From the NCBI GenBank assembly GCA_965207065.1, contig OZ242260.1:1482551-1546550 (forward strand): a DNA stretch of 64,000 nucleotides, written 5' to 3'. The notes under the pieces were generated by a model, which saw only the letters and a program-made list of their open reading frames with translations, did not search any database and had not been told where the DNA came from. Source of the stretch: a bacterium (GTDB lineage Bacteria; UBA8248). Shown here in pieces: positions 22,182 through 64,000 of the stretch. Every line of letters starts with the position of its first letter. Within the stretch, counting starts at the first letter, position 1. The translations under genes and the position numbers were made by a program.

Positions 22182-22300
22182 AATTCGGGCGCGACTTCGG
22201 AGATATTCCGGCTGATTTGCTCGATTTCTTCCTCGCGGCCGGCCTTCTCCATGTCGCGGATGATTGCCTGAGCGGTGAACATTGCCGAGCGCAACAGGTG
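22182..22300 (-). repeat. Copy B (truncated) of the RHH-element repeat
   Basis: 119 bp sharing the common end AATTCGGGCGCGACTTCGGAGATATTCCGGCTGATTTGCTCGAT...; diverges after ...GCAACAGGTG. Confidence 0.6.
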
Positions 22301-26990: not shown

Positions 26991-27419
26991 GCCCCTCCCG
27001 CGCTTGCATCACATGGTTTCCGTGCCAAGTAAGCTTGCACCATCATCGTGCGCGACGTGAAATTAATAGAGATTTCCCACGCGCTTCTCGTCAAATTAAA
27101 TTCTAAGGAATGGTTCAGAGGAATGCGCAAGACCAAGAGATGTTGCGGCTATTGCCTGCAAATCTCTGCTTCATCATTTTGTATCAACGCAGTTCGGGCC
27201 GATGCACAGGTCTCGGTAATCACATCGTGCCCCGAACAAAGTGTCAGTTTGAACATGTAAAGCAACGATATCTCGCGGATACGGTCTGTCGAATGTCTAT
27301 GTGGCGTGAATTTTCGACTTTCATAACCATTTCTCAGATGATCCATGATCGCGCAGTTTATGGATTGACGCCGCTCGAGTCTGTCCAACCCCGCATAATC
27401 TTCTGCCGATTTACGCTGC

Positions 27420-27962
27420 AATTCCGGCGCGGCTTCGGAGACATTTCTGTTGATTCGCTTGATTTTCTCTTTGCTTCGGGTACTTTCCATGTGCGGATGA
27501 TGACCTGTGCGGAGAACATCACAGAACACAACAGGTGAATTCCCGCCTCAGTTTGCGACCACTTGCGACGCTCGATAGCCTCCATTGCGAGTTCGACCAC
27601 GAGTCTGTTCGGCGATTTTTCTCGCCTTTCGGCTTCTTTTTCGAGGCGCCTCCACTGCTCGGGCTTCACCCTGACGTTCTTTTGTATTGTCTGAAGCCTC
27701 GGTTTTGCAGCTTCTTTATTGAAGGTTTTCACTCTAATTGATCGCAAAACGGGTCGGAAAATCCCGTTTCCTTGCATCGGGCTCGCTACATTTTGGGCGC
27801 ATGCATCCTCAAAAAGCCCCGGTCGATGAGATACCAAACGGATAGCCATCATAGCGCAGCGCACGCCCATCCGTATTCTCATAGCATACGTGCAGGAAAC
27901 ACCCTGATACCAGATGTATGCCATCAGCATAGTGCGCCGTGGAAAGGCGCCATTCCCTAGCG
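27420..27962 (-). repeat. Copy D of the RHH-element repeat (most complete ORF, 27358..27777), interrupted at its right end by a group II intron
   Basis: Encodes MQGNGIFRPVLRSIRVKTFNKEAAKPRLQTIQKNVRVKPEQWRRLEKEAERREKSPNRLVVELAMEAIERRKWSQTEAGIHLL...; hairpin AAACGGGtcggaaaatCCCGTTT; ~80% identity to copy E over ~540 bp. Confidence 0.6.
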
Positions 27963-42420: not shown

Positions 42421-43288
42421 ACCTGAAACCTCTCGTAGCGACCCAGAGGGTTCGACTCCCGCCCGGCAAAGGCGAAGCCGGCCAGCCGGAAGCGAGTCTT
42501 GCATGGCGTGCGGCAACGCCCGTCGTGAAGCGTAGACAGCAGGTGATGAAGCGGCGGGGTAAGCCTCGAAATCGGTCAATCGACGACGCCTTCATTGTTA
42601 ATCGTGTGGGGGCAGCACCGGGAGCGCCGCCAATGGCGAGGCGCAACGGGTCGTCCGGGGTCGTGGGCCGGCGCAAAGTCACGGGACGGGTCGCCAGGGA
42701 ACCTGGGAGATCCTGCTCTTGCCCGTGGGCAAGAACGCTGGAAAGGGGACGGCCAGCGTGAACAATCCAGACCCCGGCCCGTCGCCGGACCTGCACGGCG
42801 GCGGGAGCGCCCCAGGGCGGACACGAACCCGGCAGGCGCCCGCGGAACCGGCTGGCCAAAACAATAAGCCGAAGGACATGCGAGGGTAGGAAGTCGTAGC
42901 GCCCTGATAGTACCGCTGAAGGCGGGGAACCGTGGCCATCGGGACCCGCTGGAGGGAAGCGGGGCGTCATCTGTACAGAACCACTGATGGGAAACGATGG
43001 AGGAAACTCTGAGTTCCACCAACACGTACACGAAACAGCAGTGGATAGCCGAACAGGCGAGGAATGCCTCGACCTGCGGACCAAGGGTGACAACCCCTTG
43101 AGCGAACCTGTCAGGTGAGGAACCGAGTGCGTCAATCGCGCACGCTCGGGTCTGCGGGGGGAGGGGCGCAGCAATGCCCCCTCCTACCCGGCCCTCAAGA
43201 AAAGCGTGTCGAGGCAGACAAAGCTTTCAGTTGGTTTCGTGCTGCAATTTCAGCTTGGCACAATACAAACTTCCGCTACCTTAATGAC

Positions 43289-44227
43289 ATGTTCGACAAT
43301 GGTGGGGTTGAGCATGAGTCCGCCATGGGTGTCGCGCAACATTACCAACTCCCCACTTTTTTAGTGGACTGGACATGGAATCCTTTCGTGGCCTTGGCGT
43401 TCGCCATGTCCGATCTAAGGGATGGTGAAGAGGGCGTGGTCTTTCTTCGAGATTTTGGCGACGGAACTAACCCAACATCCGACTATAACGTTCTTTTGCC
43501 GCCGTCGTTTGCCAAGAGAGCTTGGCGTCAAAGGGCGTTCTTTTCCTGGCATCCAGTTGCTCCTGAGGATTGGGACAATCCGGTCGTGCAGAGAATTGCA
43601 GGGGATATTCCGCGGCATAATGCAATGCCCAACAATTATTATCACATCAAATTTCGTGCGACTGAGAGTGACATAAAATGGGCGAAACAGAGTTATGCTG
43701 GATTGATGAAGGAGGATCTGCCCGGCTTGGGTTGCTTGGCGAAATGGTGTTTAGAAGCCGCACGAAAGGGCGCGAATGGGCCTTTACATCCCAATGTTCT
43801 CTCGTTGGATGATTTCCAGAAATGGTGTAATCGTTGCAACTTGAATTTACCTGAGTTTGTGGTGACGAATCGAGAAGTGGAAGTAACAGAGAACTTTGCT
43901 CTCATGATGGATTATATAGATGAAATGAGCGTTAGGCGTAATCCAAGTAATGGCACAATCGGTTACTTCATTCCGAGTGTGTTAACGGCCTGTGTGGGAA
44001 TGCCATGGAACAGTTGTATGAAGTATCCCGCCCGCGGACTTAAGAACCTGAATGATCCAAGAGCAGATGTTTTCTTTGACGATGATGGGCAACCCTGTAT
44101 GGATCACTGGCATAAAAAGCTGAGCTATATGAAGTCGTTGGTTGACATAAGACGTATACAGAACGACGATTTTTTTCGATCAATGTTTGTAGAACGCCCG
44201 CGGGGAAAGAGGCAACAAATCGGTTAA
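43289..44227 (+). CDS. FRG-domain protein
   Basis: HESAMGVAQHYQLPTFLVDWTWNPFVALAFAM matches the FRG core (QHYGLPTRLLDWT.NPLVALYFA); ~46% GC. Confidence 0.55.
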   Translation: MFDNGGVEHESAMGVAQHYQLPTFLVDWTWNPFVALAFAMSDLRDGEEGVVFLRDFGDGTNPTSDYNVLLPPSFAKRAWRQRAFFSWHPVAPEDWDNPVVQRIAGDIPRHNAMPNNYYHIKFRATESDIKWAKQSYAGLMKEDLPGLGCLAKWCLEAARKGANGPLHPNVLSLDDFQKWCNRCNLNLPEFVVTNREVEVTENFALMMDYIDEMSVRRNPSNGTIGYFIPSVLTACVGMPWNSCMKYPARGLKNLNDPRADVFFDDDGQPCMDHWHKKLSYMKSLVDIRRIQNDDFFRSMFVERPRGKRQQIG

Positions 44228-45440: not shown

Positions 45441-46280
45441 TCACTTGCCGTAGCGCAGCCTTGCCACGGCGCCCTGTTGCGCGAGTTGCCCCTGCGCGTA
45501 GCGCCCAGGCATGGTCGGCGATTGCCAGCGCCCGGCGAGCTGCATCTCGACCAGGGAAGCCCCCGCCGTGGCCAGGCTCTGCGCGCTGCCCACCCGGAGG
45601 CTGTGCCCACTGATCCGCCCCTCCACTCCTGCGTCGCGCGCGCGATGGATGATTATGCGGCGGATGCTCCCCTCGGTTAGACGACCTTTCCGCAAGCAGC
45701 CCGATCTGTGAACGGGCCGGAAAAGCGCCCCCTCCGAGATTGAGGCAATCTCGAGCCAGGTACTGATGCGCACGATGGTGGGTTCTCCCAGAAACTGCAC
45801 GACGCCCGCACCTTCCTGGTCCGTCTTCGAGCGCCGGATGAGCACAGTCTGCTCGTCCAGGTTCACGTCGGAGACGTCCAAAGCTTCCATCTCCGACACC
45901 CGGAGCAACGCGTCGCTCGCCACAGAGATGATCGCGGCGTCGCGTAGTCCGGCCAGATCCCCGAACCTTTCGGCCAGTTCCGCGGCATGGTCCGCTTGCT
46001 CCCAGCGCACCCCGGCCACCTGACCGCGACCGCGCTCATAGGCCAAGCGCCTAAAGCCGGCCAGCACCCGCTCCGTCGCAGGTCCCACGGGCGAGTCCCG
46101 CCCCGCAAGTCTCACCCGGAAGCGAAGCGCCGCCACCGTCAGCGAGGCGGTAGCAGCCGAGCGGCCCTCCTCGTAGAGATCTCCCAGATACGCCGCCACA
46201 CCGACGTCGGTTTCGGGGTGCCCCGAGCGATCAAATCCCCGCAGAGCCGCCCCGTACACCCGACGGGTGTTCTCAGACAT
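45441..46280 (-). CDS. Tyrosine-type site-specific recombinase/integrase
   Basis: ...RRSKTDQEGAGVVQFLGEPT...GHSLRVGSAQSLATAGASLVEMQLAGRWQSPTMPGRY (R...HxxR...Y). Confidence 0.65.
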   Translation of the reverse strand: MSENTRRVYGAALRGFDRSGHPETDVGVAAYLGDLYEEGRSAATASLTVAALRFRVRLAGRDSPVGPATERVLAGFRRLAYERGRGQVAGVRWEQADHAAELAERFGDLAGLRDAAIISVASDALLRVSEMEALDVSDVNLDEQTVLIRRSKTDQEGAGVVQFLGEPTIVRISTWLEIASISEGALFRPVHRSGCLRKGRLTEGSIRRIIIHRARDAGVEGRISGHSLRVGSAQSLATAGASLVEMQLAGRWQSPTMPGRYAQGQLAQQGAVARLRYGK

Positions 46281-46555
46281 CGAGGCCCTCGCCAAGTTTG
46301 CTGCCAGCGGAGCTTGAACCGCTTCCTTGGCCCCGGCGTCTTCGTCAAAGCGAAGTTTCGTGTCGGGCCGGATGGTGATGCTCCCGTCGCCATGATGAGA
46401 GGCCAACCCCCAGGATCGGCGGCTGATTCCTTTACACGAAGCCGTTCGAGCGCCTCGTGTACTAACAAATATAGACAGTTGCGGGGAAATGCCAAGGAAA
46501 AAACGTCGTTCGACGGCACGAAGTCAGGCTCCAAGGCAATGAATTTTCTAAAGAT

Positions 46556-47769: not shown

Positions 47770-48586
47770 TGCACATAACGGCGCGCATCTGCTGTGCGCG
47801 CGGTTGCGCCGCTTGAACGTCGACGCCTCGGCCGGCAGCGAGGAGGAGTTGGCGCGGATCGTGGCGCAGGTCCGCAGGCGCTGGCCGCGTACGCGGGTCG
47901 TGGTCCGCGGCGACTCGGGGTTTTGCCGCGAACCGTTGATGCGCTGGTGCGAGGAGAACGGCGTCGACTACGTGTTCGGCATGGCGCGTAACGCGCGGTT
48001 GGTCCGGGCGATTGGCCGGGACCTCTACCGGGCCGGGGTCGTGTGCCACCGCAGCAGTGAACCGGCGCGCCGGTATCGCGACTTCCGCTATCGCACACGC
48101 AAGAGCTGGTCCCGAACCCGGCGGGTGGTGGGCAAGGCGCAGCACCTGCCCAGGGGGGCGAACCCCCGGTTCGTAGTCACCAGCCTCCGCCCCCGGCGGG
48201 CCGACGCCAGGCGCCTCTACGAAGAACTCTACTGCGCCCGGGGAGAGATGGAGAACCGCATCAAGGAACAGCAACTCGGCCTGTTCGCCGACCGCACCAG
48301 CAGCGCCACCCTGAAGGCCAATCAGTTGCGACTCTACTTCGCCTCCTTCGCCTACGTCCTGATGCACGGATTGCGACGCCTGGGGCTGGCCGGCACGACA
48401 TACGCCAGGGCCCAGTGCGCCACGCTCCGGCTGAAGCTGCTCAAGCTCGGCGCCCGCGTGAGGGTCACCGTGCGCAAGGTCCGGCTGTCAATCTCCGGAG
48501 CCTACCCCCATGCGGCGACCTTCGAAAAGGTGCTGAACAACCTGCGTACGCACCCGCCCTGGCCGGCGGCGGGGGAGAGAAGCTGA
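47770..48586 (+). pseudogene. IS4-family transposase, 5'-truncated
   Basis: ...RGDSGFC...YCARGEMENRIKEQQLGLFADRTSSATLKANQLRLYFASFAYVLM... Confidence 0.55.
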
Positions 48587-49666: not shown

Positions 49667-52006
49667 ATGCGGGAAAGCGCACAGAACATGACATCCAAGT
49701 CGAAGTCCGGTTTTTTCGATCTGGTAGTGGGTCGATACTTCTGGACGATAGCCGTCACATTCCTGGTGACCGCGGTTCTCGCCGCGGGAGTGCAGCACCT
49801 GATTACCGTCAATGTAGGCATCCGAAATCACTTCGATGAAGATGATCCGCATTTGATCAAACTCGACGATTTCGAAAAGACCTACGCAGTGTCGGACAGC
49901 GTGCTCGTCATTGTCGCCCCGCCGAACGACACCGTTTTCACGCGCAAAGCACTCGATGCGATTGAGCAACTGACGGAGGTGTTGTGGCAAACGCCTTATT
50001 CTGTCCGTGTCGATTCGATAACCAATTACCTGCACACCGAGGGAATCGAGGACACCCTGATTGTCGAGCAGCTGGTCGACGATGCGGCTTCGCTGGACGA
50101 GGTCAAACTCGCCCGCATTCGAGAGATTGCGCTCACCACACAGGAAACGGCCGGCCGTTTCGTCTCTCGCGATGGTCGTGTGGCCGGGCTGATCGTGAGC
50201 CTGGCAATTCCCGATGAGAAACGGAAACAGCGCAAAATCGAAGTGGTCGACGGTCTCTACGGTCTCGTCAACAAACAGCGCGCGGCCAACCCCGACATCG
50301 AATATCACATCTATGGTGAACTGTTGTTGAATCGGGCGGTTCGCGAGGCGCTGAATGAAGATATGTCCTTTTTGGCGCCAATCGCGTTTGCGATGATGGT
50401 TCTGGTGGCCATTCTATTGCTGCGTTCGGTTTGGAGCGTTTGTGGAATTTTTGCGATGATAATTGCGGTGATGGCATCGAGTTTCGGTTTAACCGGCTGG
50501 TTCGGATTGAAATTCTATGCGGAAAGCGGCGCCGCGGTATTCGTTCTGATGGCGATTGCCATCGCACACTCTGTCCACCTGATCGAAGGAATGACCGATG
50601 GAATGCTTCGTGGAATAGAACGTAAAGCCGCTGTTGTTCATTCCCTGCAAATCAATGCCCATCCGATATTCCTCACTTCGCTCACCACCATGGTCGGTTT
50701 TCTGAGCCTGAATTTCTCGGAAATGCCCCCGTTTCGAGTGATGGGAAATATCGTTGCGTTCGGCGCCATGTGCGCATTCGTTTACGCGGTCACGCTTTTG
50801 CCCGCATTGTTGGCGATGATGCCCATGCGGGCGCCCGCCGAAAAGAGAAACGGAACGAAAACATTCAAGCGTTTGGGAGATTTCGTCGTTTCCAAAAGCA
50901 CCTTGTTGCTTTGGGCTTTCGTCATACTCGTTCTGGTGAGCGCATATGGCGTCTCGAGAATTAAACTGAATGACAACAACAACGCCAAGCTGCTTAATGA
51001 AAGCTACGAGTTGCGCCGATCGGGGGATTTCATAAACGAGAACTTTTCCGGGCTGGATTCCTTTGAATATTCCCTGATCTCCGGGCGTGCAGGGGGAATC
51101 ACCGACATTGAGTACCTGCATCGGGTGGATTCGTTCGCCAATTGGCTTCGCGAACAGCCTGAAGTTTCTCACGTCACCTCGATTGCCGATATCATGAAGC
51201 GGATTAATCAGAATCTGCACAATGACGCAAAAGGCTCCTATGCCCTGCCGGCAAACTCCGACCTTGCGGCGCAATACCTGCTTTTATACGAGTTCTCTCT
51301 ACCGGTCGGCCGCGACATAAACAATCTCATCAACTTTGAGCGTTCGGCGACCCGGATGACCGTCGTGATCGGGGGAATGTCGGTCAAAGAGCAAATCGAG
51401 CTGGACAATCGCGCTTCTGCCTGGCTGGGAAAAAATGCGCCGCAAATGCGAACCGGAGCGACCGGCGTCACCATTGTCGGCGCTTACTCGGTGATGAGAA
51501 ACATCGTGAACATGTTACTCGGCACCTTCATCGCAATCTCGATCGTCTCGCTGCTGTTGATTTTTGCATTCAAAAGCCTTCGTTTGGGGCTTCTGAGCTT
51601 AATACCTAATTTCGTTCCGGCAATCATGTCCCTGGGGGCTTGGGGTTACGCCGTGGGAACCGTGAATATTGCGGCGTCAATCGTTACCGCGATAGCGTTT
51701 GCCATCGTTGTGGACGATACCATCCATCTCCTGTCCAAATACCTAAAATCACGCGCAGAGGGCAAATCACCTTCCGAAGCTATCGCGCCGACTTTCGAAC
51801 TCGTTGGAAAACCACTACTAAGCACAACCTTGATTTTTGCGGTGGCGTTTTTCGTCTTTGGCGCATCGGGGCTAGTGACCAATCAGACGCTCGGGTTGCT
51901 GGTCGGAATGACGGTCATCATTGCGCTCGTTGCGGACCTCTTTTTACTACCGCCGCTTCTGCTGGCGCTCGACAGGACGAAACACGGGCAAGCGCTCGGC
52001 GACTAG
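49667..52006 (+). CDS. RND-superfamily (MMPL/HpnN-like) lipid exporter
   Basis: 779 aa with 12 predicted TM segments in a 1+5/1+5 arrangement and two large periplasmic loops. Confidence 0.65.
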   Translation: MRESAQNMTSKSKSGFFDLVVGRYFWTIAVTFLVTAVLAAGVQHLITVNVGIRNHFDEDDPHLIKLDDFEKTYAVSDSVLVIVAPPNDTVFTRKALDAIEQLTEVLWQTPYSVRVDSITNYLHTEGIEDTLIVEQLVDDAASLDEVKLARIREIALTTQETAGRFVSRDGRVAGLIVSLAIPDEKRKQRKIEVVDGLYGLVNKQRAANPDIEYHIYGELLLNRAVREALNEDMSFLAPIAFAMMVLVAILLLRSVWSVCGIFAMIIAVMASSFGLTGWFGLKFYAESGAAVFVLMAIAIAHSVHLIEGMTDGMLRGIERKAAVVHSLQINAHPIFLTSLTTMVGFLSLNFSEMPPFRVMGNIVAFGAMCAFVYAVTLLPALLAMMPMRAPAEKRNGTKTFKRLGDFVVSKSTLLLWAFVILVLVSAYGVSRIKLNDNNNAKLLNESYELRRSGDFINENFSGLDSFEYSLISGRAGGITDIEYLHRVDSFANWLREQPEVSHVTSIADIMKRINQNLHNDAKGSYALPANSDLAAQYLLLYEFSLPVGRDINNLINFERSATRMTVVIGGMSVKEQIELDNRASAWLGKNAPQMRTGATGVTIVGAYSVMRNIVNMLLGTFIAISIVSLLLIFAFKSLRLGLLSLIPNFVPAIMSLGAWGYAVGTVNIAASIVTAIAFAIVVDDTIHLLSKYLKSRAEGKSPSEAIAPTFELVGKPLLSTTLIFAVAFFVFGASGLVTNQTLGLLVGMTVIIALVADLFLLPPLLLALDRTKHGQALGD

Positions 52007-52185: not shown

Positions 52186-54216
52186 TCAAGCCGAAATTTC
52201 GCGCAACTGGCTTGCGATGCGCAGCCGAAGTTTCTTCGTAACCGACAATGCCGGGAACGGGTTGATTTTCAGCTTATAGTCTTTAGGCGGCAGCGCGAAC
52301 TCGAAATGATGCGCTATAACCAACACGGTAACCGTCAACTGCAAATGCATCCATGCCCATCCTGCGCACGAGTGGGTATCCAAGCCGTTCGGAGCGTATC
52401 CAGGACCTTGATGCTCATTGCGCGGCGGCAGGTAACGGTCGATATCGAATTCGTAGGGGTCTGCGAAGCAATCACTCATGTAGTGCGCCGCGGTTTGCAC
52501 AATGTACAACCGTTCCCTGAGCGGCAGTGAATAATTTTCCACGACGCAAGAACTTGCGACATCGCGAAGATGTATGCAGATAATCGGATACATTCGTAAA
52601 CATTCCATGAGAAAACGTCTGGTAACGTCATACTTGTCCGGCGAAAACTCGTCTTTATCCGGGTCGCCGCCATCGAAAAGCGCGTTTGCCTCTTCACGAA
52701 TTCTCGCCGTAATTTCCGGCTGTCTGGCCATTTCATAAAGCACGAATCCCAACATGTCCCCTAGATAAATACTTTGAAACACAGGCGTTACCGCCAGCAT
52801 GAACAGCAGGTTTTGCTCCGGGATAAACTGCGGGTCGCTGTTGTGCAGAGAAATCAGTTCGTCCGCCAGATCCTCGGCAACACCTGCGCGGTGAATGGGT
52901 ATATGGTTCTGCTCGATGCGCCGCAGGAGTTTCTCGTAAAGCTGAAAGCGATACTTCATGCCGGGAGTGCGCGTCAGGAATTTCGGCAGAAAATCCGCAA
53001 CGTAGCAAAGGATTGCTCTTTCATTCCATTTGACCAGATCTTCAAATACATCTTGCGAATCCGTACTAATAAGAACCTGAGACATTTGAAAATTGGTCAT
53101 CAACCGGGTATCTCGCTGTACTTCTAGTCTCGAGCCCGCCTGCCACTCTTGACTTATCATGAATTGGCGGCTCAGTCGGAACATATCATCCAGCCTCTCA
53201 TAGAAACTGGCTTTCGAGTAAATTCTCCCCATCAGCTTGCGCAATCGAAAATGATCGGCTCCGTCCATCGACGGCAGTAAATTGTTTGCGCCGCAAACCA
53301 TCTCCATCTTGCGAAAAAAATTGCCGGAAGTTAAAAACCTTCGGGAATTTCGACGCACCCAATGATTGATATCAGGTCCAGCCAAAAATGTTCGCGGCTC
53401 TTGAAACGGCGCACAGATTTGAAAGACCGGACCATATCGGTCGGCCAGATTTCCGAACAGCGCCGGCAGGTTGCCGTCCCACAAATGCCGATTTGCAAGC
53501 AAGCTCTTTAGGGGAATCTTCGGAATTGGTTTTGTGAGGGGTGAGTGTTGCAATGCAGGCGTAATGGCGACTTGCTTGACGGCAGTGGAAATGACCCGGT
53601 TGAGCAGTTCCGTTTTACAAACCAGGTCAATTCGCTTTTTCTCTTCCTCATCCAGCTCGAAAATAAATTTAATGATATCGCACGCATCCAAAAGACCGAT
53701 TATCAGGGAATCCCTCGGGTCCGGAATGATATCCGTGAAAATCACCTCCTCGATTCTCGATTTGATGTACCTTCCGACGCTCTCGCTTCGGGGATAACGT
53801 TCCAATTCCGCATGCCAGGCGCAGTGGTTCGTTGTGTAAAACTCACCATCATGGCGCGTCAGAATTTCGGACTTGAGCAAGTGCTTCAGCGTAGCATCGA
53901 TGATGTCTTCCGAATGAACTGCAAGCCGCTCAATCCAGTATCGCGGTTCTTCCAGATTGGGATGGGATGCGATCTCTTCCAGGCATAAATCCAGTGCCAG
54001 GTCGCCTGTTTTGGTTGAATCCAGGAGAAAAAGCGATTCTTCATCTGTATCAACGCGTGATTTCAAGGAGAGATCGGCCAGAACAGCGCCGATGGTGGCG
54101 CAGTTCAACGTCCAGCCCTCCACTTGGTGGAAATAACCGTTCTGCTCGTTGAGAATCGTCAGGATGAATTCTTGCGGGATATTCAACGATTGCTTCGTTA
54201 TCATGTTACACTCCAT
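52186..54216 (-). CDS. GPP34 (GOLPH3-like) domain fused to a cytochrome P450 domain
   Basis: N-terminus ...LNCATIGAVLADLSLKSRV...; C-terminus ExxR (ECLRMYP), PERF-like DRYL, haem loop NGLDTHSCAGWAWMHLQL; the in-window start is probably MECNM/MITKQ (the upstream extension is junk). Confidence 0.6.
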   Translation of the reverse strand: MECNMITKQSLNIPQEFILTILNEQNGYFHQVEGWTLNCATIGAVLADLSLKSRVDTDEESLFLLDSTKTGDLALDLCLEEIASHPNLEEPRYWIERLAVHSEDIIDATLKHLLKSEILTRHDGEFYTTNHCAWHAELERYPRSESVGRYIKSRIEEVIFTDIIPDPRDSLIIGLLDACDIIKFIFELDEEEKKRIDLVCKTELLNRVISTAVKQVAITPALQHSPLTKPIPKIPLKSLLANRHLWDGNLPALFGNLADRYGPVFQICAPFQEPRTFLAGPDINHWVRRNSRRFLTSGNFFRKMEMVCGANNLLPSMDGADHFRLRKLMGRIYSKASFYERLDDMFRLSRQFMISQEWQAGSRLEVQRDTRLMTNFQMSQVLISTDSQDVFEDLVKWNERAILCYVADFLPKFLTRTPGMKYRFQLYEKLLRRIEQNHIPIHRAGVAEDLADELISLHNSDPQFIPEQNLLFMLAVTPVFQSIYLGDMLGFVLYEMARQPEITARIREEANALFDGGDPDKDEFSPDKYDVTRRFLMECLRMYPIICIHLRDVASSCVVENYSLPLRERLYIVQTAAHYMSDCFADPYEFDIDRYLPPRNEHQGPGYAPNGLDTHSCAGWAWMHLQLTVTVLVIAHHFEFALPPKDYKLKINPFPALSVTKKLRLRIASQLREISA

Positions 54217-54284: not shown

Positions 54285-57200
54285 CTACGAGATCTTCTTT
54301 GCCGTTCCGGTTCCGCCGTCCGGCTTCATGTCCACAGCCGCCACTCTTCCAGCCATGACGCGTTGACTTCTCGCCGGTAATATCATGCTCTTTCGTCGCT
54401 TCCGGCGACGCTGCTCGTAGAGACCAAGCGCGTGCAGGGGGAAATACTGGCGGTAGAGCACGTAATCCAGGAGCGCCGTCCGAAAAAAAACGCCGGGCAT
54501 GTCCTGCTTGGGCCAAGTCCCGTCTGCTTCCTGCGTATTAAGCAGGAAGCCAGCGCCCCGGGAAATCGCGGCCCAGTCTGTTTCGTCCGCCTTGAGGAGT
54601 GCTATCAGCGCCCACGCGGTCTGTATGACCTGGCTTTCCTGATGCGGGACGTAGCAACCGCTTAGGCAGCCGCTGTGGTGTTCGCCCCATCCCCCGTCTG
54701 GCTGCTGGCGCTCCAGCAGCCAGCGGCAAGACGCGCGCAGCGCCGGATCGCTTGGACCGGCCCGGTCCGAAACAAGGCCCCAGATGCCGAAAAGGGTGCC
54801 GTAGATGTACTGGACCCCCCATACGCCGCGCCAACTGCCGTCAGCCATCTGGTTCCGTCGCAACCACAAGGCGCCCCGGGCGATGGAGTCGGCAACCACT
54901 GACCTGTCGCCAATTTCAGGAAATCGATCCCGGCAGACAGCCAGCGCCGCGATACAAGACGCGGTACATTCGACAAAAGAATGCTCGGTCATCGATTCGC
55001 CGAACATCTCTGCAGGATTCAAGCGCTCCAGATCAATTGCCGAGCGCCTGGCCTCATAACTGCCGAAGCCGCCGTCGGGGTTCTGGCTTCGCAACATAAA
55101 GCCAATCGCTTCGCTGAGCACGGACGAGTCCGTGTCGTCTCCGTGGGCGGCGACGAGTCCAAGCACCGCCTGCGCCGTGCAGTCACTCACCGGCCAGCCA
55201 TGCCACCCACCGGCGAAGCACCAGCCGCCTTTGGGGTCAGCGCGGTAGGCTTCACGAAACCGTTCAAAGCTGATCTTGATCTGTTCGCCGAGCAGAAAAT
55301 CGGCGCCGCGCCGGAGCGCATCCCGAACACGGTCCGTCTCAGGCATGGTAGCCAGAGCCTGCAGCGCGAACCCGGTATCCCACGAAGCGCTTCTTGCTCC
55401 GGTGACCCGCAAGCCGTCGTCTTCGTCTTCCCATATCCAGGAATCCATTTTCGATAGCGCCCTTCGGCAATCGGTATCGTCCGGATCGTGCAGCCACAGC
55501 GCCAGAATGTTGAGAATGCCGCTGACTGGAGAGATGCTCGTATGGCTGGTGGTCTGCAGTTCCCATCTGATCTGCCCGAGAATTGCATCCATGCACCGTG
55601 TGCGCAGGTGTTTGCTGTGGAACCGCTCGACCAGCCGTGCAAATCTATATCCGAGCCTGAGCCAGACGGACGGCCTTGCAAAAAGATCGGCATCCCGAAG
55701 CCGGTTCCTAGCGGCGAGAAAATCGGCCCTGGCAAAACCTTGCGGATAAAGCTCTTCCCGCAACGCAGCGATAACTGGTGTGACGGGCGCCTGGTACCGG
55801 CGGGCATAAATCGACGCCATCGCCATATAGATGAGCCGTGTATGGCAGTACCAGTTGGAGGGATGCAGCGGTATCTTCCGCGGCAGGCTCCACAATTCCG
55901 GCAGAACAGCGTTCACGCCGTTCCAATCATAAAGATTAAGGAGCGCCAGCCAGAATTTTCCCCAGCTCGGAATGCCGAGAATCCCCTCGGCCTGAATGAA
56001 CCGCCGGGCCGGCGCGATCAGGGGGTCATCCGGCTCTACACCGAGCAGCCGCGCCGCGACATAAACGAGGGCGGTGACGAACAGATGGGGCGACGAATGC
56101 TCGTGCAGGCCCCATGAACCGTCTTGGAGACGGGTCCTCTCAAACGAGTGCAGCACCCGGCGCCGCTTTCCCGGATCGAGCGGCTGGCCGATGATGTGGT
56201 GGAGCAGTACGTATTGCGCCGTGAGCATGGGACACCAGACCATCTCGCCTTCCCAGTCGCCGTCCTCTCTCTGCAGTTGCACGAGGCATTGGGCGGCGCT
56301 TTCCAGCGCCGGACCGGCATCGGGCGAATCGACCTCTCCGGCGCGGGCGGGCCGCTCCGATTCGGTTTTCGAAGGGATGGTATAGGGGAATGCCCGTCGT
56401 AGGTGCTCTCGCGCTTTCGCGCTTTCCTCCCTTCCTTCCCTGGCCGCCTCCCTCAACTGGCGGATGCCGAGCAGCAACCACCAAAGGCGAGCAGCCAACG
56501 CGCGAAAGTTCACCAATATCCGACGCCATAGAAACCTGCGGATGGAGAAGGTTGTCTCCCGGCTCATTGCCCGCGCGACAGTTTCGCAAAAGGAGAAAAC
56601 CGTCATTGGCATGGACAACTCTTGGCAGGCAAGTATCCGCATGGTCCGGTCCCGATACCCCGAATTCGCTCGCCAGCCCTGGTAAACGGCCTTTCTGAGC
56701 ATAACCGATTCGGTGCGGTAATCGGTCAACACCTCATAAAGCCCCATGGCAAGGAACTCGGGAATACGGGTCGCCTGGAACCGCTTTGCGGTGAATTGCT
56801 GGAAGTCCTCGCTTTCGGAGAGCGCCAGCGCATCGCCGAAGCCGAGAGTCATGCCGACTGCCGTCATGGGATGATAGTGTCCGGCCGCATCGCCGATAAG
56901 CACCCGGTGCGGGTTCCCGTACGTGACACGCGGTCTCAACTGGTTGGCGGCGGCATAGAATCGCCTGACGTGCAGCGCTTCGACGAAGGCCGGCCCGAGA
57001 TTTCCTGGAAGCAGCCTGCCATAGGATTCAGACAAGAAACTTATCCGGTCCTTGGAATTCCAACAATCCAATGGGACATCCAGGTTGACCCGGACGGAGC
57101 CGTTCGCAAGTCCGTAAATGAAAATTGGACCCGGCCCACCCAGAACCAGATGGCCGTATCCTTCAAACAGCAGGTCGGCGTCGTGTAACGTCACCCCGAG

Positions 57201-57718
57201 CATCCGCGAACAGAGCATCGGGTCCATGGAATATCCCAAGGATCTGCGCACGATCGAAGCGCGGCCGTCGGCGCCGATAATTCGGTCGACATTTATGGCG
57301 CATTCCAAGCCATTTCTCGAGAAGGTAATCCGTTCGTCTTCAACGACATTGACCCGCGCGTGGGAAATGAAATCGACATTGGCCTCGTTCTCAATGACCT
57401 CGCGGAGGCTTGAAACGAGCAGCGCGTGGTCGCATACCAGACCCCGTGAACCGTCTGGATAAGGAAGCAGGATCGGGTCGGAGTCGTCGTCGGGCAGCAC
57501 CACGAAACCGACGCCCGACTTGCTGCCGGACAGCGTGTCGACATCAATCCCGATGTCACGCAACAACTTCACTCCCGGCGGATGCAACCATTCGCCTGCA
57601 AGGCGTTTAGACGCTTTCGGATTCGCTTCGAGCAGGGCCACCTTAACGCCCTTGCGCGCAAGGACAATTGCGCATACGCTTCCCACCGGTCCCGCGCCGA
57701 TAATGGCGGCATCATACT
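54285..57718 (-). CDS. Bifunctional squalene monooxygenase (FAD) - oxidosqualene cyclase fusion protein
   Basis: N-terminal domain: YDAAIIGAGPVGSV (FAD GxGxxG), GEWLHPPG (cf. GELLQPGG), IIGADGRASIVRRSL, IGDAAGHYHPMTAVGMTLGFGD (squalene-epoxidase GD motif). C-terminal domain: QW-type repeats, GWPVSDCTAQAV (OSC catalytic VxDCTAE motif), GGWGEH. Single frame with no stop; the likely start is GTG at ~57718 (the track Met at 57839 adds an Arg/Ser-rich junk extension). Confidence 0.7.
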
Positions 57719-57729
57719 TCGGCACCGAG

Positions 57730-59016
57730 TCAGCGCTCCTCAAAGGGCGCTGAGTACAGCGCGGCGGCGGTTGTGAAGGGCAGGTCGCCGTCCTGGATCG
57801 AGAGCAGGAACGTTTCCGGACCCTCGATCTCGTCATCATGCTCGGTGGGAATAGAGAAGCGGTACCGGGGCCACCCCGCCGGGATAGTCAAATTGTAGGG
57901 GCCGCCCGTGTAGTCCCCTTGTTCCGACGCGGTCTGGTCCGTGTTCACCAATGTAACAGTTGTATTCGTGAACCGAGGCCACGAGAACATCAGTTTCCAT
58001 CTCGAGCACCTCGCCTTTGGCCACCGAGTTGGCGTTGTCCAGATACTCAACACGCTTGTCAGGTCGCTGTGCGTCACGGTCTGCTGGCCGGCGTGCCCAC
58101 GGGCAGGCCGCAGGCGACGTTGGTGTTGCTTGCCCTCGCTCCCGAAAACGACGTTCAGCGTCCCTTCGTAGGCGTTGCCTTCTTCTAGGTTCGCCACTGG
58201 GGTGAGCATGATGAGCGCCTACTGCACCACGTTCGTGGCGAGGCCGGTGAAGGTCAGAGTCAGGTCACTTCCCGTACCGGACACCGTAACGCTGGTTCCG
58301 GTGGTGGCGTAGGAGTAGTCCGAGGTCACGTGATTGGTGTTGCGGACGGTGGTCGAGTTAGTGCCTATGCCGATGGAGAAGTGCGCCACGTCGTCCGTCA
58401 GCAGCCGCTGGCCGAGCTTGACCCTGACCTGCGCCGTGTCGGTCGCGTCGCCTTCGGTCATCCACGTATCCATCGCCTCGAAGGAGACCGTGACCTGCGC
58501 GGTGGCCTCGTCGGCAAAACCCGCCGACAGCAGGACAGGCAACAGCAAGGACAGGAAGAGACGGTGCGGGGAAAAGGTGGTCCGTTTCCAGGGCGTGCGT
58601 CCCGGGGCGCCGATTCTTTTGCGGAGTCCGGAAGCCGCGCCGCGCGGACCGGAGCGGCGGGAAAACTCAGGCGGTGAGGCTGGAAGGCAAAGGCAGCGCC
58701 GCCATGCGGTAACGCTCATGGCCGACGTTCGGTTCGGTTCGGTTCGGTTCGGTTCGGTTCGGTTCGGTTCGGTTCGGTTCGGTTCGGTTCGGTTCGGTTC
58801 GGAGAACATGGTGAAGAACGCTCTCGTCCGGCTTGTCAAGCCCTGATATGAAGCTTTTCTGCTATTGAAGAAGGCCCGAAAAACCAAGGGGAATGTTGCA
58901 AGGCGGCGCGCATCTTCGGTCTCCTTAAAGAATGGGAATAATTCAGCAAAGTTAACAAAGATTTTAGAGATTAACTTCATCATTGAGTTCATCGAATCTT
59001 GATCCTGAATGGTCAA
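57730..59016 (-). pseudogene. Secreted Calx-beta domain protein with in-frame stop (58219-58221), preceded in frame by a (TEPNR)n repeat
   Basis: Signal peptide ...HRLFLSLLLPVLLSAGFADEATAQ, then Calx-beta-like VTVSFEAMDTW...; the second half MLTPVANLEEG...GEGDYTGGPYNLTIPAG... is in the same frame after a stop. Confidence 0.45.
58726..58802. repeat. Pentanucleotide microsatellite (GGTTC)14-15, i.e. (GAACC)n on the coding strand
   Basis: Read directly; lies between an upstream ATG (MFSEPNRT...) and the signal peptide of the Calx-beta gene. Confidence 0.9.
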
Positions 59017-59334: not shown

Positions 59335-59871
59335 CTACGCGGCTTCCGTCAATGACGCGGACGCTGCTCCCCAAGTCCTCATGCCTGCGGATGCGCCCGG
59401 CGTCTGCGGCACGCACCAGAAGCAACTGGCGGAACGCGATGTGCCCCGACGTAAAGACGACGGCCTCCTCCCAGCCGCATCGAGAGTTCGCGAATCGAGG
59501 ATCGTGATGCCCCCGCCCACCATGTCGAACTGCGATCCGGCCGCGCGAAGCCAGATGTTCTTCCAAGACGCGATGCCGCGGCGGGAAAAAGAGAGGCCCG
59601 CGCCCTTCATCGCTTCGAGGGCGCTCAACAGATTCGACTCGTAGCCTAGATGGACGTGGGAGCCGGCGGAATTTGGAGCGGGGTCGGCGCTGTAGCTCAC
59701 CGGTTTGAAGAAGGCATAGTATCCGAATATCAGAGGACGTCCATCACTCGTGCAAGCCACCGAAGGTGTGGCGAACGCGCCGACAGCGAGAACGAGACAA
59801 ACCATCGAGGCGCAGGCGGCGAGTGATGTCCGTCCGGGCAGGCGGGAAAACAGCGCAAGCATGCCTTTCAT
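59335..59871 (-). pseudogene. Periplasmic solute-binding protein family 3 (PBPb-like) N-terminal part, apparently frameshifted or truncated
   Basis: Signal peptide; ...LIFGYYAFFKPVSYSADPAPNSAGSHVHLGYESNLLSALEAMKGAGLSFSRRGIASWKNIWLRAAGSQFDMVGGGITILDSR. Confidence 0.4.
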
Positions 59872-60552: not shown

Positions 60553-62310
60553 ATGATGTCCGTTTTTACCTCCAGGATTGTTGGACTCGTCGCCATGATC
60601 GCAATCATGTCCGGCTGCAGCAGCGCAACCAGACAAGGCCACGGCGTCCCGCCTGCAGGAGAATTGTTCCACGGGCAGAAAGCATTGATGGAAAAAGTCG
60701 AAGCCGGAGGTCCCCTCGAGGGTGTTCTGACGATTATCGATACGGAGTGCCGGGTTGCGGAATCCCACTGCGCCGTGGTCACTGAAACCGCCGCGGCGTT
60801 CGGAACACCTCGGGGAAACATACTCCACACGGAAAAAGGGCGCTTCGGCGATGCCGACTATGAGTCCGTGCTTACTCACCCTGAAACGCTCGAAGAACTC
60901 ATTGCATCCGGCGGATTGGAGGCCATAATCGAGGAGTTGAAACTTCTTGGGACGGCTCCGGGGACTTTCCTGACCCGGGCAACGTGGGAGGCGCACAGAG
61001 AACGGACGAAAGTCGTGGTCATGCCGTTCGGTCCGGTTTTCAACCGGCCGGGAGACGGTTCCCTGATCGCAAGTCGCAACATGCTGTTTGTCGCGTCAAT
61101 CGGAAACGTCATCACCGATGAGAGCCAGCCGTTCGACAAGGATAGCTTCGTGCGCAACTGGTACACGCCCGGCTGGTGCAGCGATCGGGAATCGGTGGAG
61201 CGGCGCACGGGCAGCGGCAACTTCTATTGCGATCTCCTGAACGACGCACAGCTCGCCAGCATCTTCAGGAACCTGAAGGAGGCGCAGGGAAAGGCTCTGT
61301 ATGCGACCTGGGGAGACATCAAGGACGGAGAAGTCACGCCCTATCCTTTTGCGGTGAGCTGCGGGGAAGCGAAGAACGATTGCTTCACGGTCATCCTGCC
61401 GCCTGAGCATCGGGGCCGGAAGATCGAGAGTTTCGATGATATGGCGCAATACGCCGTCGGCACCTCGTTTGCGTCGCCGGCTCTCGGCAGCTATCTCTTT
61501 TATCTTTCCCAACTCTGGGACGATGCGGGAGAGGTGCGCAGGATTCTCAACGAATGCGCCATCGACGTTGGAGAACCCGGAATCGACAGGGAATTCGGCC
61601 GGGGCGTTGCGAGCGCCGACTGTCCGCAGGTGGCGAAGAGGGAAAGGACCACCGCGCGGGCGAGCGTCTCACTTGACATGCGCTCGCCGCTGATGAATGC
61701 GCGGGATGCGGTGGTGTCTGCTGCCGCGGCGAGGGGCTACGAGGGGTCCAGGTCTTCGCGGCGGGAATCCGAATCCGGCGCGAGGGGGCCGCTTTCGTTC
61801 CACACCGCCCGGCCGCGGGGCGGGGCGAGAGCGCCGCTTCGGTTTTCGTTCGCCTCCTCGGCGCGGCAGCGTGTCGTTCCGGAGATTTACCTGGCGGAGG
61901 GCATTCTGGGCGCCGGGGTGACGAAACGCTTCACCACCGGCGAGAGCATCTCCTTATCGTTCGGGCATGGGTACGACACCCTTGCGGCGTCTTCCTTCCT
62001 GGCCGGCCCCGGACGCCGGGAATCGTTCATGGAGGTCGGCGTGCGTAAGCCGCTACTTCTAGGCCGAAACACGCTCGTCGAACTGTCGGGTTCATACGGG
62101 CGGGTGAACGATGAAATGCGACTCCAGGTATTCAGGGCGGGACTGAGGTCGGTGCATCGGGAAGGCAACCATAGCGTTGCATTCGACCTCGCGTATGCGC
62201 GGGCGGCCGGTTCTCTCGGCATCCCCGGCTATAGAGACGTGGGCAGGAACAAGGTCCCCTTCATGAAGGAGTCGTTTGACACCGCCGTTTCCTGGCGCCT
62301 GGAATTTTGA
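60553..62310 (+). CDS. Lipoprotein with S8/subtilisin-like serine motif and autotransporter-type C-terminal beta-barrel (NalP/SphB1-like architecture, tentative)
   Basis: Lipobox IMSGCSS; GTSFASPALGS (GTSxAxP Ser-site motif); C-terminus ends ...VSWRLEF (aromatic-x-aromatic barrel terminus); Asp/His catalytic motifs not confidently identified. Confidence 0.35.
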   Translation: MMSVFTSRIVGLVAMIAIMSGCSSATRQGHGVPPAGELFHGQKALMEKVEAGGPLEGVLTIIDTECRVAESHCAVVTETAAAFGTPRGNILHTEKGRFGDADYESVLTHPETLEELIASGGLEAIIEELKLLGTAPGTFLTRATWEAHRERTKVVVMPFGPVFNRPGDGSLIASRNMLFVASIGNVITDESQPFDKDSFVRNWYTPGWCSDRESVERRTGSGNFYCDLLNDAQLASIFRNLKEAQGKALYATWGDIKDGEVTPYPFAVSCGEAKNDCFTVILPPEHRGRKIESFDDMAQYAVGTSFASPALGSYLFYLSQLWDDAGEVRRILNECAIDVGEPGIDREFGRGVASADCPQVAKRERTTARASVSLDMRSPLMNARDAVVSAAAARGYEGSRSSRRESESGARGPLSFHTARPRGGARAPLRFSFASSARQRVVPEIYLAEGILGAGVTKRFTTGESISLSFGHGYDTLAASSFLAGPGRRESFMEVGVRKPLLLGRNTLVELSGSYGRVNDEMRLQVFRAGLRSVHREGNHSVAFDLAYARAAGSLGIPGYRDVGRNKVPFMKESFDTAVSWRLEF

Positions 62311-62435
62311 ATTCATCGGTACGCATCGTTTACGGGTGAACCGTTATCGAGGCGGCTCTGCATAATGGCGCGCATTGTCCGGACGCCGATGCCGTAAGAG
62401 TTTTTTATAAAACAATTCATTCCAATAATCCCGGC

Positions 62436-62935
62436 AATTCGGGCGCGACTTCTGAGATATTCCGGTTGATTTGTACGATTTCCTCCTCTCGTCCGTCCCG
62501 ATCCATTTTGCGTATGATGGCCTGCGCCGCGAACATCGCGGAGCGAAGCAGGTGGATTTCCGCCTCGGTTCGCGGCCATTCGCGACGCTCCAGGGCCTCC
62601 ATCGCGAGTTCGACCACGAGTCTGTCGGGTGAATTTTCCCGCCATTCGGCTTCTTTTCGAGGCGCTTCCACTGATCTGATTTCACCATGACGTTGATTTG
62701 TATCGTCCGGAGCACCGGTTTTGCTGCTTCTTCATGAAATTTTTCACCCTGATCGATCGCAAAACGGGCCGGAAAAATCCCGTTTTCTGCATCGGGTGCA
62801 CTACATTTTGAGCGCGTGCACCTTCAAATTGCCCCGGCCCATGAGATACCAGACTGGTATCCATCATAGCGCAGCGCAGGCCTGCTCGATACCAATTCAG
62901 TATCTCCGCAGGGGAAAGGCCATTCGCTGCTACCG
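62436..62935 (-). repeat. Copy E of the RHH-element repeat (ORF broken by frameshifts)
   Basis: Same AATTCGGGCGCGACTTC end; ...SPDRLVVELAMEALERREWPRTEAEIHLLRSAMFAAQAIIRKMDRDGREEEIVQINRNISEVAPELPG; hairpin AAAACGGGccggaaaaatCCCGTTTT. Confidence 0.6.
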
Positions 62936-63388
62936 CCGGTCACTCGATCCATCCATATGAGGGGCAAGCGGAGCGCAGGCATTCGCATCATGGGCGACCC
63001 GCCACCTGAAAGATATCAGGATGGTATTACATTTTCCGGCGCGACGGGAGCACTCAGGAATACGAATTTTCACGGCATACTGCACGCAGTCGTATCACTG
63101 TAACACCAGCATCAGCGATGCGTCGGGTGTACTGAAAGAAACGCCGAAGGGCGGCTAGCGCAGGGATTCTTAGGAACGCGAGTCGAGGGGAATCATGCCG
63201 GTGAGAATGGCGAGCGGGAGCCGTCGCGGCGATTGAGCGCGAGGAGCAATGCGGGGAGTTGTTCCTGCGGCAAGACCAGTGGAGTCTTCATCGTTGCCGG
63301 CGCAAGCGGCGCGAGCGTTGGTCGACGAGACGCAAAGGGCCGCGCCGCCGCCGGGCGGGGTGGCGACGCGACCCGAGGTGTTTTCGCG

Positions 63389-64000
63389 TCAGGCTGCAAC
63401 GCGCTGGACGGGGATACCGAGGGTTTTAGCTTTGTCGACGAGGTTGTCGGTGATGCCCGAACCCGGGAACGCGATCACGCCCTTGGGCAGGAGTGCGAGG
63501 AGTTCGTCGTTCCTGCGGAAGGGAGCGGCCCTGCCGTGGGCGTCCCAATCCGGTTTGCAGACGACCTGGTGGACGCCGTTCCGCTCGGCCCATCCCGCCG
63601 CTATCTTCTCCGCACCGGGGCCGCCGCCGTGGACGAGAACGACGTCGGCGTACTTGGCCTTGACCTTGTCGAGGTGGCCGATGATTTTGCCCGCATCGCT
63701 CGCCTCCTTGCCTCCCGCGACGGCGACGAGGGTTCCCTGGGGCAAGTGGGCCGTGTTCTCGCGGTCCTTTCTGGCTCGCTGGAAGTCGCGCGCCTCGATG
63801 ACAGCGGAGGTGAGCTTGCCGGTCTGGCTGACGTGGGAACCTCGCCTCGGCCGCCATACCTCGCCGGTCTCGATGCGGTAGGCTTCTGCTGCCGTGTCCC
63901 TGAGTCCCTCGAAGGCGTCCCTGCGCTCCGTGAGGTTGTTGGCCCGGTCGGTCTTGAGTTCGAGTTCACGCGACCTGATCTCGGAGCCGTCCTGCTCACG
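63389..64000 (-). CDS. DUF2493/SLOG-like protein (partial, runs off the window end)
   Basis: ...LVAVAGGKEASDAGKIIGHLDKVKAKYADVVLVHGGGPGAEKIAAGWAERNGV...; the frame is open beyond 63745 to the window edge. Confidence 0.45.
   Translation of the reverse strand, partial: REQDGSEIRSRELELKTDRANNLTERRDAFEGLRDTAAEAYRIETGEVWRPRRGSHVSQTGKLTSAVIEARDFQRARKDRENTAHLPQGTLVAVAGGKEASDAGKIIGHLDKVKAKYADVVLVHGGGPGAEKIAAGWAERNGVHQVVCKPDWDAHGRAAPFRRNDELLALLPKGVIAFPGSGITDNLVDKAKTLGIPVQRVAA

Follow-up and report, generated by a model that had tools for sequence, protein, structure and literature searches.

Conserved association of a GPP34-cytochrome P450 fusion protein with sterol genes and RND exporters in bacteria of the sponge-symbiont type

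The 64-kb window analysed in this study (64,000 nt of contig OZ242260.1, from a bacterium of the UBA8248 lineage) carries a gene which encodes a GPP34 (GOLPH3-fold) domain and a cytochrome P450 domain in a single polypeptide. We have found that, in dozens of species belonging to many phyla, genes for such GPP34-P450 proteins recur close to genes for sterol enzymes and RND exporters. This conserved tie appears to be new and is seemingly unreported in the searchable literature. Judging from sequence, predicted fold and gene neighbourhood, we consider it reasonably probable that the protein is a cytoplasmic haem-thiolate enzyme of the GPP34_L family which acts in a sterol or triterpenoid module of the symbiont and works with a sterol-type exporter. 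The gene and its two direct neighbours are as follows:

52186..54204, minus strand: GPP34-P450 fusion gene, 672 amino acids (aa) plus stop; single open reading frame (ORF) with both Pfam domains above their cutoffs and with homologues
54285..57839, minus strand: squalene monooxygenase-oxidosqualene cyclase (SQMO-OSC) fusion gene, 1184 aa; identified by Pfam, NCBIfam and similarity search
49667..52006, plus strand: RND/MMPL (HAE3/HpnN-like) transporter gene, 779 aa, with a sterol-sensing domain; Pfam MMPL, Sterol-sensing and Patched

When a single genome of each species was scanned, at least 547 stretches matched. The neighbourhoods (10 kb on either side) of the best 80 loci and of the window, 81 in all, were compared by clustering their ORFs and identifying the recurring families with Pfam and NCBIfam. 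The best 80 loci all belong to metagenome-assembled genomes (MAGs) and come from at least nine higher-level bacterial groups; the carriers are Alpha- and Gammaproteobacteria (including Candidatus Poriferihabitaceae and Arenicellales), Nitrospirales, Chloroflexota, Latescibacterota, Gemmatimonadota, Acidobacteriota, Verrucomicrobiota and Rhodothermaceae. The initial annotation of this DNA had pointed to Methylococcales and Myxococcota as the place for homologous loci; the relatives found were all in MAGs of the sponge type. The recurring families were:

52 of 81 loci: MMPL-type RND transporter with a sterol-sensing domain
44 loci: SdmA-like Rieske oxygenase (Methylococcus C-4 sterol demethylase; E=1e-117, below the equivalog cutoff)
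37 loci: sterol C-24 methyltransferase (SMT) with the Sterol_MT_C domain
25-26 loci: flavin amine-oxidase-family protein
17 loci: SQMO-OSC fusion
11 loci: ERG4/ERG24 reductase
11 loci: AcrB-type RND transporter
10 loci: LolA-like/DUF1329 protein
9 loci: SdmB-like NAD epimerase/3-beta-HSD
8 loci: DUF1302 protein

At least one recurring partner was present in 69 of the 81 loci, and a gene for SMT, OSC or ERG24 lay within 10 kb in 51 of them; the chance expectation for a sterol gene within this distance is about 1-2% by our own estimate, made for a handful of such genes among several thousand in a genome, which is not a computed control. An RND pump was located within 3 kb in 61 of the 79 scorable loci and an SMT gene within 500 bp in 29. 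The association was observed in Alpha- and Gammaproteobacteria, Nitrospirales, Chloroflexota, Gemmatimonadota, Latescibacterota and Verrucomicrobiota, the partners recurring while the gene order varied between lineages. The link to sterols, which had been proposed from the two flanking genes of the window, was thus borne out and proved to be stronger than originally noted.

The composition of the neighbourhood differed between lineages. The Chloroflexota loci show the order flavoprotein, Rieske, GPP34-P450, SMT and RND (RND in 26, SMT in 26 and Rieske in 25 of the 28 loci). In Nitrospirales and some Gammaproteobacteria, the fusion and SMT genes are followed by genes for the cyclase, CYP51, ERG24, SdmA-like and SdmB-like proteins. 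All 11 loci of Latescibacterota, Gemmatimonadota and Verrucomicrobiota have an AcrB-type pump. Many Alphaproteobacteria share with the window a minimal triad of cyclase, GPP34-P450 and the RND protein with the sterol-sensing domain, and the pump in Proteobacteria is accompanied by periplasmic or outer-membrane partners. Two full-length GPP34-P450 genes were found within 10 kb in L017 (1943-3961 and 10001-12019), each beside its own RND gene, and in L066 (3089-5251 and 9980-12025).

Contigs from sponges showed the same arrangement. Scanning JGI metagenomes with a Nitrospirales member of the family detected contigs from Aplysina aerophoba (Ga0209021) and Petrosia ficiformis (LXNJ01); the host sponges were identified by means of the supplementary data to Brown et al. 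2023 (PMC10070321). The order in L089 (A. aerophoba) and L094 (MKWU01000439.1) is GPP34-P450, SMT, SMT, SQMO-OSC, CYP51 and ERG24, with a Rieske gene after ERG24 in L094. Genes 9-16 follow this order too in JGIcombinedJ30088_10000835, an A. aerophoba scaffold the SMTs of which were shown to be functional (Brown et al. 2023; PMC10070321). From the synteny, gene 8 of that scaffold is predicted to be a GPP34-P450 gene. Relatives also occur in Candidatus Poriferihabitaceae MAGs, and the genome nearest to the window is a MAG with 97% protein identity and 96.8% nucleotide identity over 10 kb. The two divergent SMT genes directly after the GPP34-P450 gene (12032-14955 in L094, present also in L089) match the reference SMT at 42% and 75% in L094. 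Some 860 bp lie between them, in which no ORF reaches 120 aa, and the pair corresponds to the SMTs named '1 of 2' and '2 of 2' in the A. aerophoba cluster already published.

Several points weigh against the assignment to sterol metabolism. Only the cyclase and pump genes accompany the GPP34-P450 gene in the window, no CYP51, ERG24, SMT or Rieske gene being found within its 64 kb. None of the 28 Chloroflexota loci has a cyclase gene within 10 kb, and the substrate in this group could be a host sterol or something else. No ferredoxin or reductase gene recurs near the GPP34-P450 genes. The gene calls were simple longest-ORF calls, and the loci are not phylogenetically independent, so that transfer of whole cassettes could maintain the linkage without strict functional coupling. 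Finally, the contexts of four distant fusions are mixed: that of P0127 is non-sterol, that of P0136 is ambiguous, P0123 stands among AcrB, OEP and KshA-like Rieske genes, and P0143 has two sulfotransferases and a methyltransferase for neighbours. The sterol link is therefore shown only for the clade of the window protein. In L085 (7106-11362), a distant fusion gene is followed by two sulfotransferase genes and preceded by a methyltransferase gene, and in L083 (5993-17066) another one lies between AcrB/OEP efflux genes, near that of a KshA-like Rieske oxygenase; the I-helices of the L085 and L083 fusions are canonical or intermediate, and their contexts are lipid-like ones of another kind.

The pairing of the two domains in one protein, which had been read from the sequence alone, was confirmed by Pfam, with both profiles (PF05719 and PF00067) matched far above their curated cutoffs, and by the predicted folds. 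The case of two separate ORFs, which the initial annotation had raised, was checked as well: the window has one ORF, and more than 120 full-length homologues in a large protein collection (658-703 aa, 50-94% identity) all carry both Pfam domains; the fusion is thus no sequencing artefact. Its neighbours, the SQMO-OSC fusion on one side and the RND/MMPL protein with the sterol-sensing domain on the other, also agreed with the annotation. No NCBIfam family matched the fusion protein above its cutoff. ATG 54204 (MITKQ), with GGAG 6 nt upstream, is the more likely start codon; the 92% identical homologue P0002 begins with MITKQ at the equivalent position. ATG 54216 (MECNM), the start used previously, is possible and adds four residues. 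TTG 54516 is not credible as a start, since the in-frame extension would run into the 3' end of the gene upstream and is of low complexity.

The domain combination had been presented as remarkable in itself; it was, however, already published in 2025. A set of 656 'GPP34_L' proteins, consisting of GPP34 and P450 and found only in sponge-symbiont bacteria, was described in Microbiome (PMC11706023). That paper proposes that GPP34 binds the phosphatidylinositol 4-phosphate (PI4P) of the host and that phagosome maturation is thereby blocked; the P450 is treated as an unexplained companion, and the word 'sterol' is absent. The window protein has the same two-domain architecture and order, belongs to the same size class and is a member of this family, with the same taxonomic setting of sponge-type MAGs of many phyla. 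In contrast to the published account, we found sterol genes and RND exporters linked to the family, a PI4P pocket that is not conserved and a derived I-helix.

Published sterol clusters of sponge symbionts are similarly close to the loci described here. MsbE of a Melophlus symbiont (2020) is a bifunctional squalene epoxidase/sterol cyclase with neighbouring genes for CYP51, a sterol reductase, a Rieske oxygenase, an NAD(P) oxidoreductase and a sterol methyltransferase; the genes that flank msb were described as not resembling sterol genes (PMC7074536). Kelly et al. 2022 (PMC9531527) described ERG24-CYP51-LSS 'CSGs', also in Dehalococcoidia from sponges, and an enrichment of sterol gene clusters in sponge symbionts, and SMT clusters with sdmAB were reported in PMC10070321. 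Our loci contain the same MsbE-type bifunctional enzyme and share with these clusters CYP51, ERG24, SdmA/SdmB-like proteins and SMT, whereas the window has the cyclase, the P450 and the pump only. Those papers list neither a GPP34-P450 nor an RND pump as a cluster member; neither 'cytochrome' nor 'GPP34' appears in the searched text and supplements of Brown et al. 2023, and no mention of the fusion was found in Kelly et al. 2022. A literature search for GPP34/GOLPH3 together with sterol or sponge found no paper linking them. As for the exporter, an HpnN-like MMPL RND gene beside genes of sterol synthesis is reminiscent of bstA in the BstABC system of M. capsulatus (PMC10942540). The partners here are, however, DUF1329/LolA-like and DUF1302 proteins and not BstB/BstC, sterol binding is putative, and no P450 partner was described for BstA (PMC10942540).

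The P450 part of the protein comprises these elements:

52189..53508, minus strand: cytochrome P450 domain, aa ~233-672; Pfam PF00067, Foldseek and phmmer
52756..52779, minus strand: I-helix segment FQSIYLGD, aa 476-483, at the site of the [AG]Gx[DE]T[TS] motif
52594..52605, minus strand: K-helix ExxR motif (ECLR); E534 and R537 kept in all 28 close and all 43 distant relatives
52360..52395, minus strand: haem-thiolate loop APNGLDTHSCAG; Cys613, His611 and Gly615 conserved

PF00067 was matched at aa 489-661 (E=2e-21, 77 bits versus the cutoff of 23), and the P450 fold is complete in the AlphaFold (AF2) model of the full protein (predicted local distance difference test score, pLDDT, 85; predicted template modelling score, pTM, 0.73). 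The P450 motifs named in the initial annotation (ExxR, PERF region and Cys loop) are all present, and the coordinates of ECLR, the Cys loop and the I-helix were verified. R590 of the PERF region (FDIDRY) is invariant in the relatives, as is the C-helix pair H318/R322 in the alignment of 28 close relatives. Cys613, His611 and Gly615 are likewise invariant in the 28 close relatives and occur in 42, 41 and 37 of the 43 distant ones, respectively. The conservation of Cys613, His611, ExxR, R590 and H318/R322 in close and distant relatives speaks in favour of a functional haem enzyme. Most members of the family have a basic P450 domain (isoelectric point, pI, ~9), the value for the window protein being 7.7. 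The haem loop reads APNGLDTH in the window protein and P0002 and APY/FGL.TH in the rest of the family; Asn606 (codon 52378-52380) is thus found in these two proteins, while 26 of the 28 family members have Phe or Tyr. Nearly all P450s have Phe or Tyr at this position.

The best fold match in the PDB (Foldseek) was the CYP51 of Methylococcus capsulatus (6mcw), with a target-normalised template modelling (TM) score of 0.82 and 19% identity, and phmmer against the PDB led to M. capsulatus CYP51 too (E=2e-14). The next matches were CYP184A1, BM3, CYP46A1 and CYP3A4, and target-normalised TM scores ranged from 0.72 to 0.82 across P450s. No structure of the CYP74, peroxygenase or isomerase type was among the top 50 fold matches. 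Since the best sequence and fold matches are both to CYP51 and the 64-kb window contains no CYP51 gene, the protein might be taken for a divergent CYP51 which replaces the canonical enzyme where none is encoded nearby. We regard this as very improbable. The identity is 19-20% over the domain, or 28% over the C-terminal 198 aa when a sponge-symbiont CYP51 is compared, and FQSIYLG stands where the sponge-symbiont CYP51 has FAGQHTS. Members of the same P450 family are by convention at least about 40% identical. Moreover, a separate P450 of ~470-520 aa lies beside the cyclase or ERG24 gene in seven loci (L004, L010, L017, L025, L059, L064 and L075), and CYP51-like genes are also present in L089 and L094; the separate P450 of L010 was read and bears the CYP51 signatures FAGQHTS and FGGGKHRCMG. 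This co-occurrence largely refutes a replacement of CYP51, and because a separate CYP51-type P450 shares the loci, the fusion would have an additional function and not that of the 14-demethylase. The CYP51-ferredoxin protein of M. capsulatus (PDB 6mcw/7snm) is the closest protein of solved structure, by fold and by sequence, and, like the GPP34-P450 protein, a natural fusion in a bacterial sterol context. It differs in the low identity noted above, in its other I-helix and in its fusion partner, which in our protein is N-terminal and non-redox, and a separate CYP51 coexists with the latter.

The I-helix without the acid-alcohol pair, as annotated initially, was found to be an invariant loss across the clade of the window protein. 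The clade has [QAV]-S-[IMLV]-Y-[LV]-G-D, with S478, Y480, G482 and D483 invariant, whereas the 43 distant fusions mostly keep A-G-[DEH]-T (A in 34, G in 32 and T in 32). Tyr480 is aligned with the Thr position by MAFFT against the distant fusions and with the acid position by BLASTP against CYP51, which places Leu481 at the Thr position; the pair of acid and Thr is absent in either register. From these comparisons, the loss is a derived feature within an otherwise canonical P450 lineage. Because the clade has exchanged the pair for Ile/Tyr/Leu, its oxygen chemistry probably differs from ordinary proton-assisted hydroxylation. The change fits unusual oxygen chemistry and does not define the reaction. 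P450s without the Thr include ordinary monooxygenases. With the P450 domain as the query against 1.8 billion cluster representatives, 163 clusters were obtained at E<=1e-30; many were fusions of 650-690 aa, with identities down to ~24%, and some were stand-alone P450s of ~450 aa. The stand-alone relatives P0146 and P0148 are located on contigs of 1.6 and 3.5 kb, too short to be informative.

The N-terminal part of the protein consists of the following segments:

53560..54183, minus strand: GPP34/GOLPH3-fold domain, aa ~8-215; Pfam PF05719, domain model and PDB fold matches
53509..53559, minus strand: interdomain linker, aa ~216-232; pLDDT 69-75, below 50 at aa 219-221

PF05719 was matched at aa 13-199 (E=5e-22, 79.3 bits versus the cutoff of 29.1, 182 of 201 profile positions covered). 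The domain modelled alone reached a pLDDT of 88, and its top eight PDB fold matches were all GOLPH3/Vps74 proteins (E from 1.5e-8 to 6.6e-5, query-normalised TM 0.61-0.71), the next match having E=0.2. GOLPH3/Vps74 structures (PDB 3kn1, 2zih and 9qpq) thus have the same fold and are the sole significant structural matches. They differ from our domain in sequence (13-18% identity) and in the residues of the lipid pocket; our domain is, moreover, strongly acidic and fused to an enzyme. The PI4P pocket of Vps74, formed by W88, R97, K178 and R181 (positions that agree with the chain numbering), was compared through a weak profile alignment (E ~3e-6), a further reservation in the reading of this domain. 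In this weak alignment, R97 corresponds to Ile38 (I/V/T/A in the family), R181 to a gap, K178 to K107, which is variable in the family, and W88 to Val28, three residues off the invariant Trp31. The GPP34 domain of the window protein is acidic (net charge -17, pI 4.75), and so it is in all 28 family members (net charge -9 to -23, pI 4.3-5.2). The phosphoinositide-type lipid-recruiting module proposed in the initial annotation was therefore not upheld: the pocket arginine positions are hydrophobic or gapped, the lysine is unconserved and the charge is strongly negative throughout.

These results also bear on the model of a host-directed effector, according to which the released protein would bind PI4P on the sponge phagosome or Golgi through GPP34 and block maturation, with the P450 as an accessory. 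The fold is truly GOLPH3-like, the fusion was reported only in sponge symbionts of many phyla (PMC11706023), and a P450 in which the proton-relay pair is missing might manage without a redox chain from the bacterium. However, the strongly acidic GPP34 domain has no basic residues at the pocket arginine positions, and no signal peptide, hydrophobic N-terminus or membrane-spanning segment was found in the protein, its GPP34 fold beginning at about residue 8. In most loci, the gene stands among those of cytoplasmic and inner-membrane sterol enzymes and RND pumps, and the enrichment of sterol clusters in sponge symbionts (PMC9531527) explains the distribution equally well. We therefore consider an effector quite unlikely, and the neighbourhoods weaken the evidence for the phagosome-evasion model. 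Eukaryotic GOLPH3 holds the basic tails of Golgi enzymes via an acidic surface. By analogy with this surface, we favour for the acidic GPP34 domain a role in docking or positioning, with the membrane, the pump or a membrane-bound sterol enzyme as the likely site, over the binding of phosphoinositides. A role of GPP34 as a built-in iron-sulfur redox partner was also considered, as C35, C175 and C196 are invariant in the close clade. It was rejected because the three cysteines are not conserved in the 43 distant fusions (C35 is kept in 10 of 43 and C196 in 4 of 43).

The P450 and pump genes seem to have travelled together. Relative to the window copies, the identity of the RND protein tracked that of the P450 (Spearman 0.91, n=26), whereas the identity of the OSC did not (Spearman 0.34, n=15); as all identities refer to one reference, they reflect co-phylogeny only crudely. 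In the window, the P450 gene has a G+C content of 0.50 and the RND gene one of 0.53, compared with 0.61 in the cyclase gene and a window mean of 0.58. Of 64 full-length loci, 59 have a fusion gene with less G+C than the flanking DNA, the difference averaging 5 points and reaching 21; the largest drop (0.44 versus 0.65) was observed in L018 and L016. Nucleotide similarity to the two nearest genomes is limited to 49.3-59.3 kb (96.8%) and 49.5-57.8 kb (94.2%) of the window. Mobile-element remnants lie beyond the pump gene, at the edge of the conserved block:

45441-46406, minus strand: phage-type integrase (Pfam)
47804-48586, plus strand: truncated DDE transposase fragment (Pfam)

On this sequence evidence, the P450 and the pump are the tightest unit, since they are the most constant neighbours, diverge in parallel and are both low in G+C in the window. 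Together with the confined synteny and with the integrase and transposase remnants, the identity tracking and the low G+C suggest that the block is traded horizontally and that the P450-pump pair forms its core.

Such a pair could also serve detoxification, the P450 oxidising a toxic metabolite of the host or of a neighbour, such as a terpenoid, a saponin, a sterol sulfate or another lipophile, and the RND protein expelling it, with the sterol link being secondary. The RND gene is indeed the most constant neighbour (within 3 kb in the 61 of 79 loci), the pumps in all 11 Latescibacterota, Gemmatimonadota and Verrucomicrobiota loci are of the AcrB type that resembles drug-efflux pumps, one distant fusion lies between AcrB and OEP genes, and the low G+C and spread across phyla resemble a traded resistance trait. 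The recurrence of SdmA-like Rieske, ERG24, CYP51 and OSC genes and the SMT gene within 500 bp in 29 loci do not agree with this explanation, nor does the commonest pump, which is of the HpnN/MMPL lipid-exporter type with a sterol-sensing domain and not a drug pump. Detoxification as the primary function is in our view rather unlikely.

In the sterol module that we prefer, the SQMO-OSC fusion would make a lanosterol-type triterpenol, the P450 domain would modify this or another sterol or triterpenoid at the cytoplasmic face, and the pump with the sterol-sensing domain would move the lipid out of the inner membrane. The GPP34 domain would keep the enzyme in place, either at the membrane or on a partner protein, for instance the pump or a sterol enzyme bound to the membrane. 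Where SMT, SdmA-like and flavoprotein partners are present, the P450 may contribute one tailoring step among several; in lineages with no cyclase gene nearby, the substrate may be a host sterol or may come from a cyclase encoded elsewhere in the genome. A bolder version, possible yet doubtful, is that sponge symbionts tailor and export their own or host sterols by means of a horizontally spreading P450-RND module in which the P450 catalyses a non-hydroxylase reaction and GPP34 is docked on the pump or a membrane sterol enzyme. The Thr-less, Tyr-bearing site might then perform C-C cleavage, desaturation or rearrangement of an oxygenated sterol, the products might be sterol structures of the sponge type, and docking might resemble that of GOLPH3 on the basic tails of Golgi enzymes. 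If this were true, a part of the 'sponge' sterol chemistry, including precursors of side-chain-alkylated biomarkers which the adjacent SMTs make, would pass through an overlooked bacterial enzyme.

The neighbourhoods described here bring together two lines of work, that on sterol clusters and SMTs of sponge symbionts and that on GPP34-P450 as a hallmark of sponge symbiosis. They give the fusion a concrete candidate role in sterol tailoring or export and name a so far unassigned oxygenase and an exporter for the symbiont pathway, the SMTs of which bear on the disputed 'sponge biomarker' 24-isopropylcholestane. Furthermore, the clade shows how, in nature, a P450 of an otherwise canonical lineage has lost the residues of the proton relay.

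The SQMO-OSC gene adjoins the GPP34-P450 gene upstream on the same strand, with its stop codon 80 nt away. Its product has the Pfam domains SE/FAD_binding_3 and SQHop_cyclase_N/C, was assigned to 2,3-oxidosqualene cyclase by NCBIfam and is similar to human lanosterol synthase (E=3e-134). At the positions of the human enzyme it has Ala 381, His 449 and Val 453, and DCTAQ replaces DCTAE at the catalytic Asp; His 449 is cycloartenol-synthase-like and Val 453 is of the lanosterol type. The product may accordingly be lanosterol, parkeol or another compound. A promoter and terminator scan of 51.8-58.4 kb found nothing above the shuffled expectation and no consensus in the 80-nt gap, so that co-transcription of the GPP34-P450 gene with the cyclase gene is weakly supported. 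The transporter gene is convergent with the P450 gene across a gap of 179 nt, and its NCBIfam HAE3/HpnN-like match was below the cutoffs.

An FRG-domain protein is encoded at 43115-44227, just past the RND gene together with the integrase and the transposase. Genome L082 has there instead a second MMPL, a BNR protein, DUF1329 and DUF1302, which are likely envelope partners of the pump. Upstream of the cyclase gene, the ORFs 58219-59016 (minus strand), 59335-59871 (minus strand) and 60553-62310 (plus strand) had no Pfam match, and the segment 57730-58209 gave only a weak Calx-beta match below the gathering score. Four segments of the window (10548-10768, 22179-22301, 27399-27712 and 62430-64000) all match positions 2538-4069 of L001 with 74-88% identity and represent a repeated, probably mobile sequence scattered through the window.

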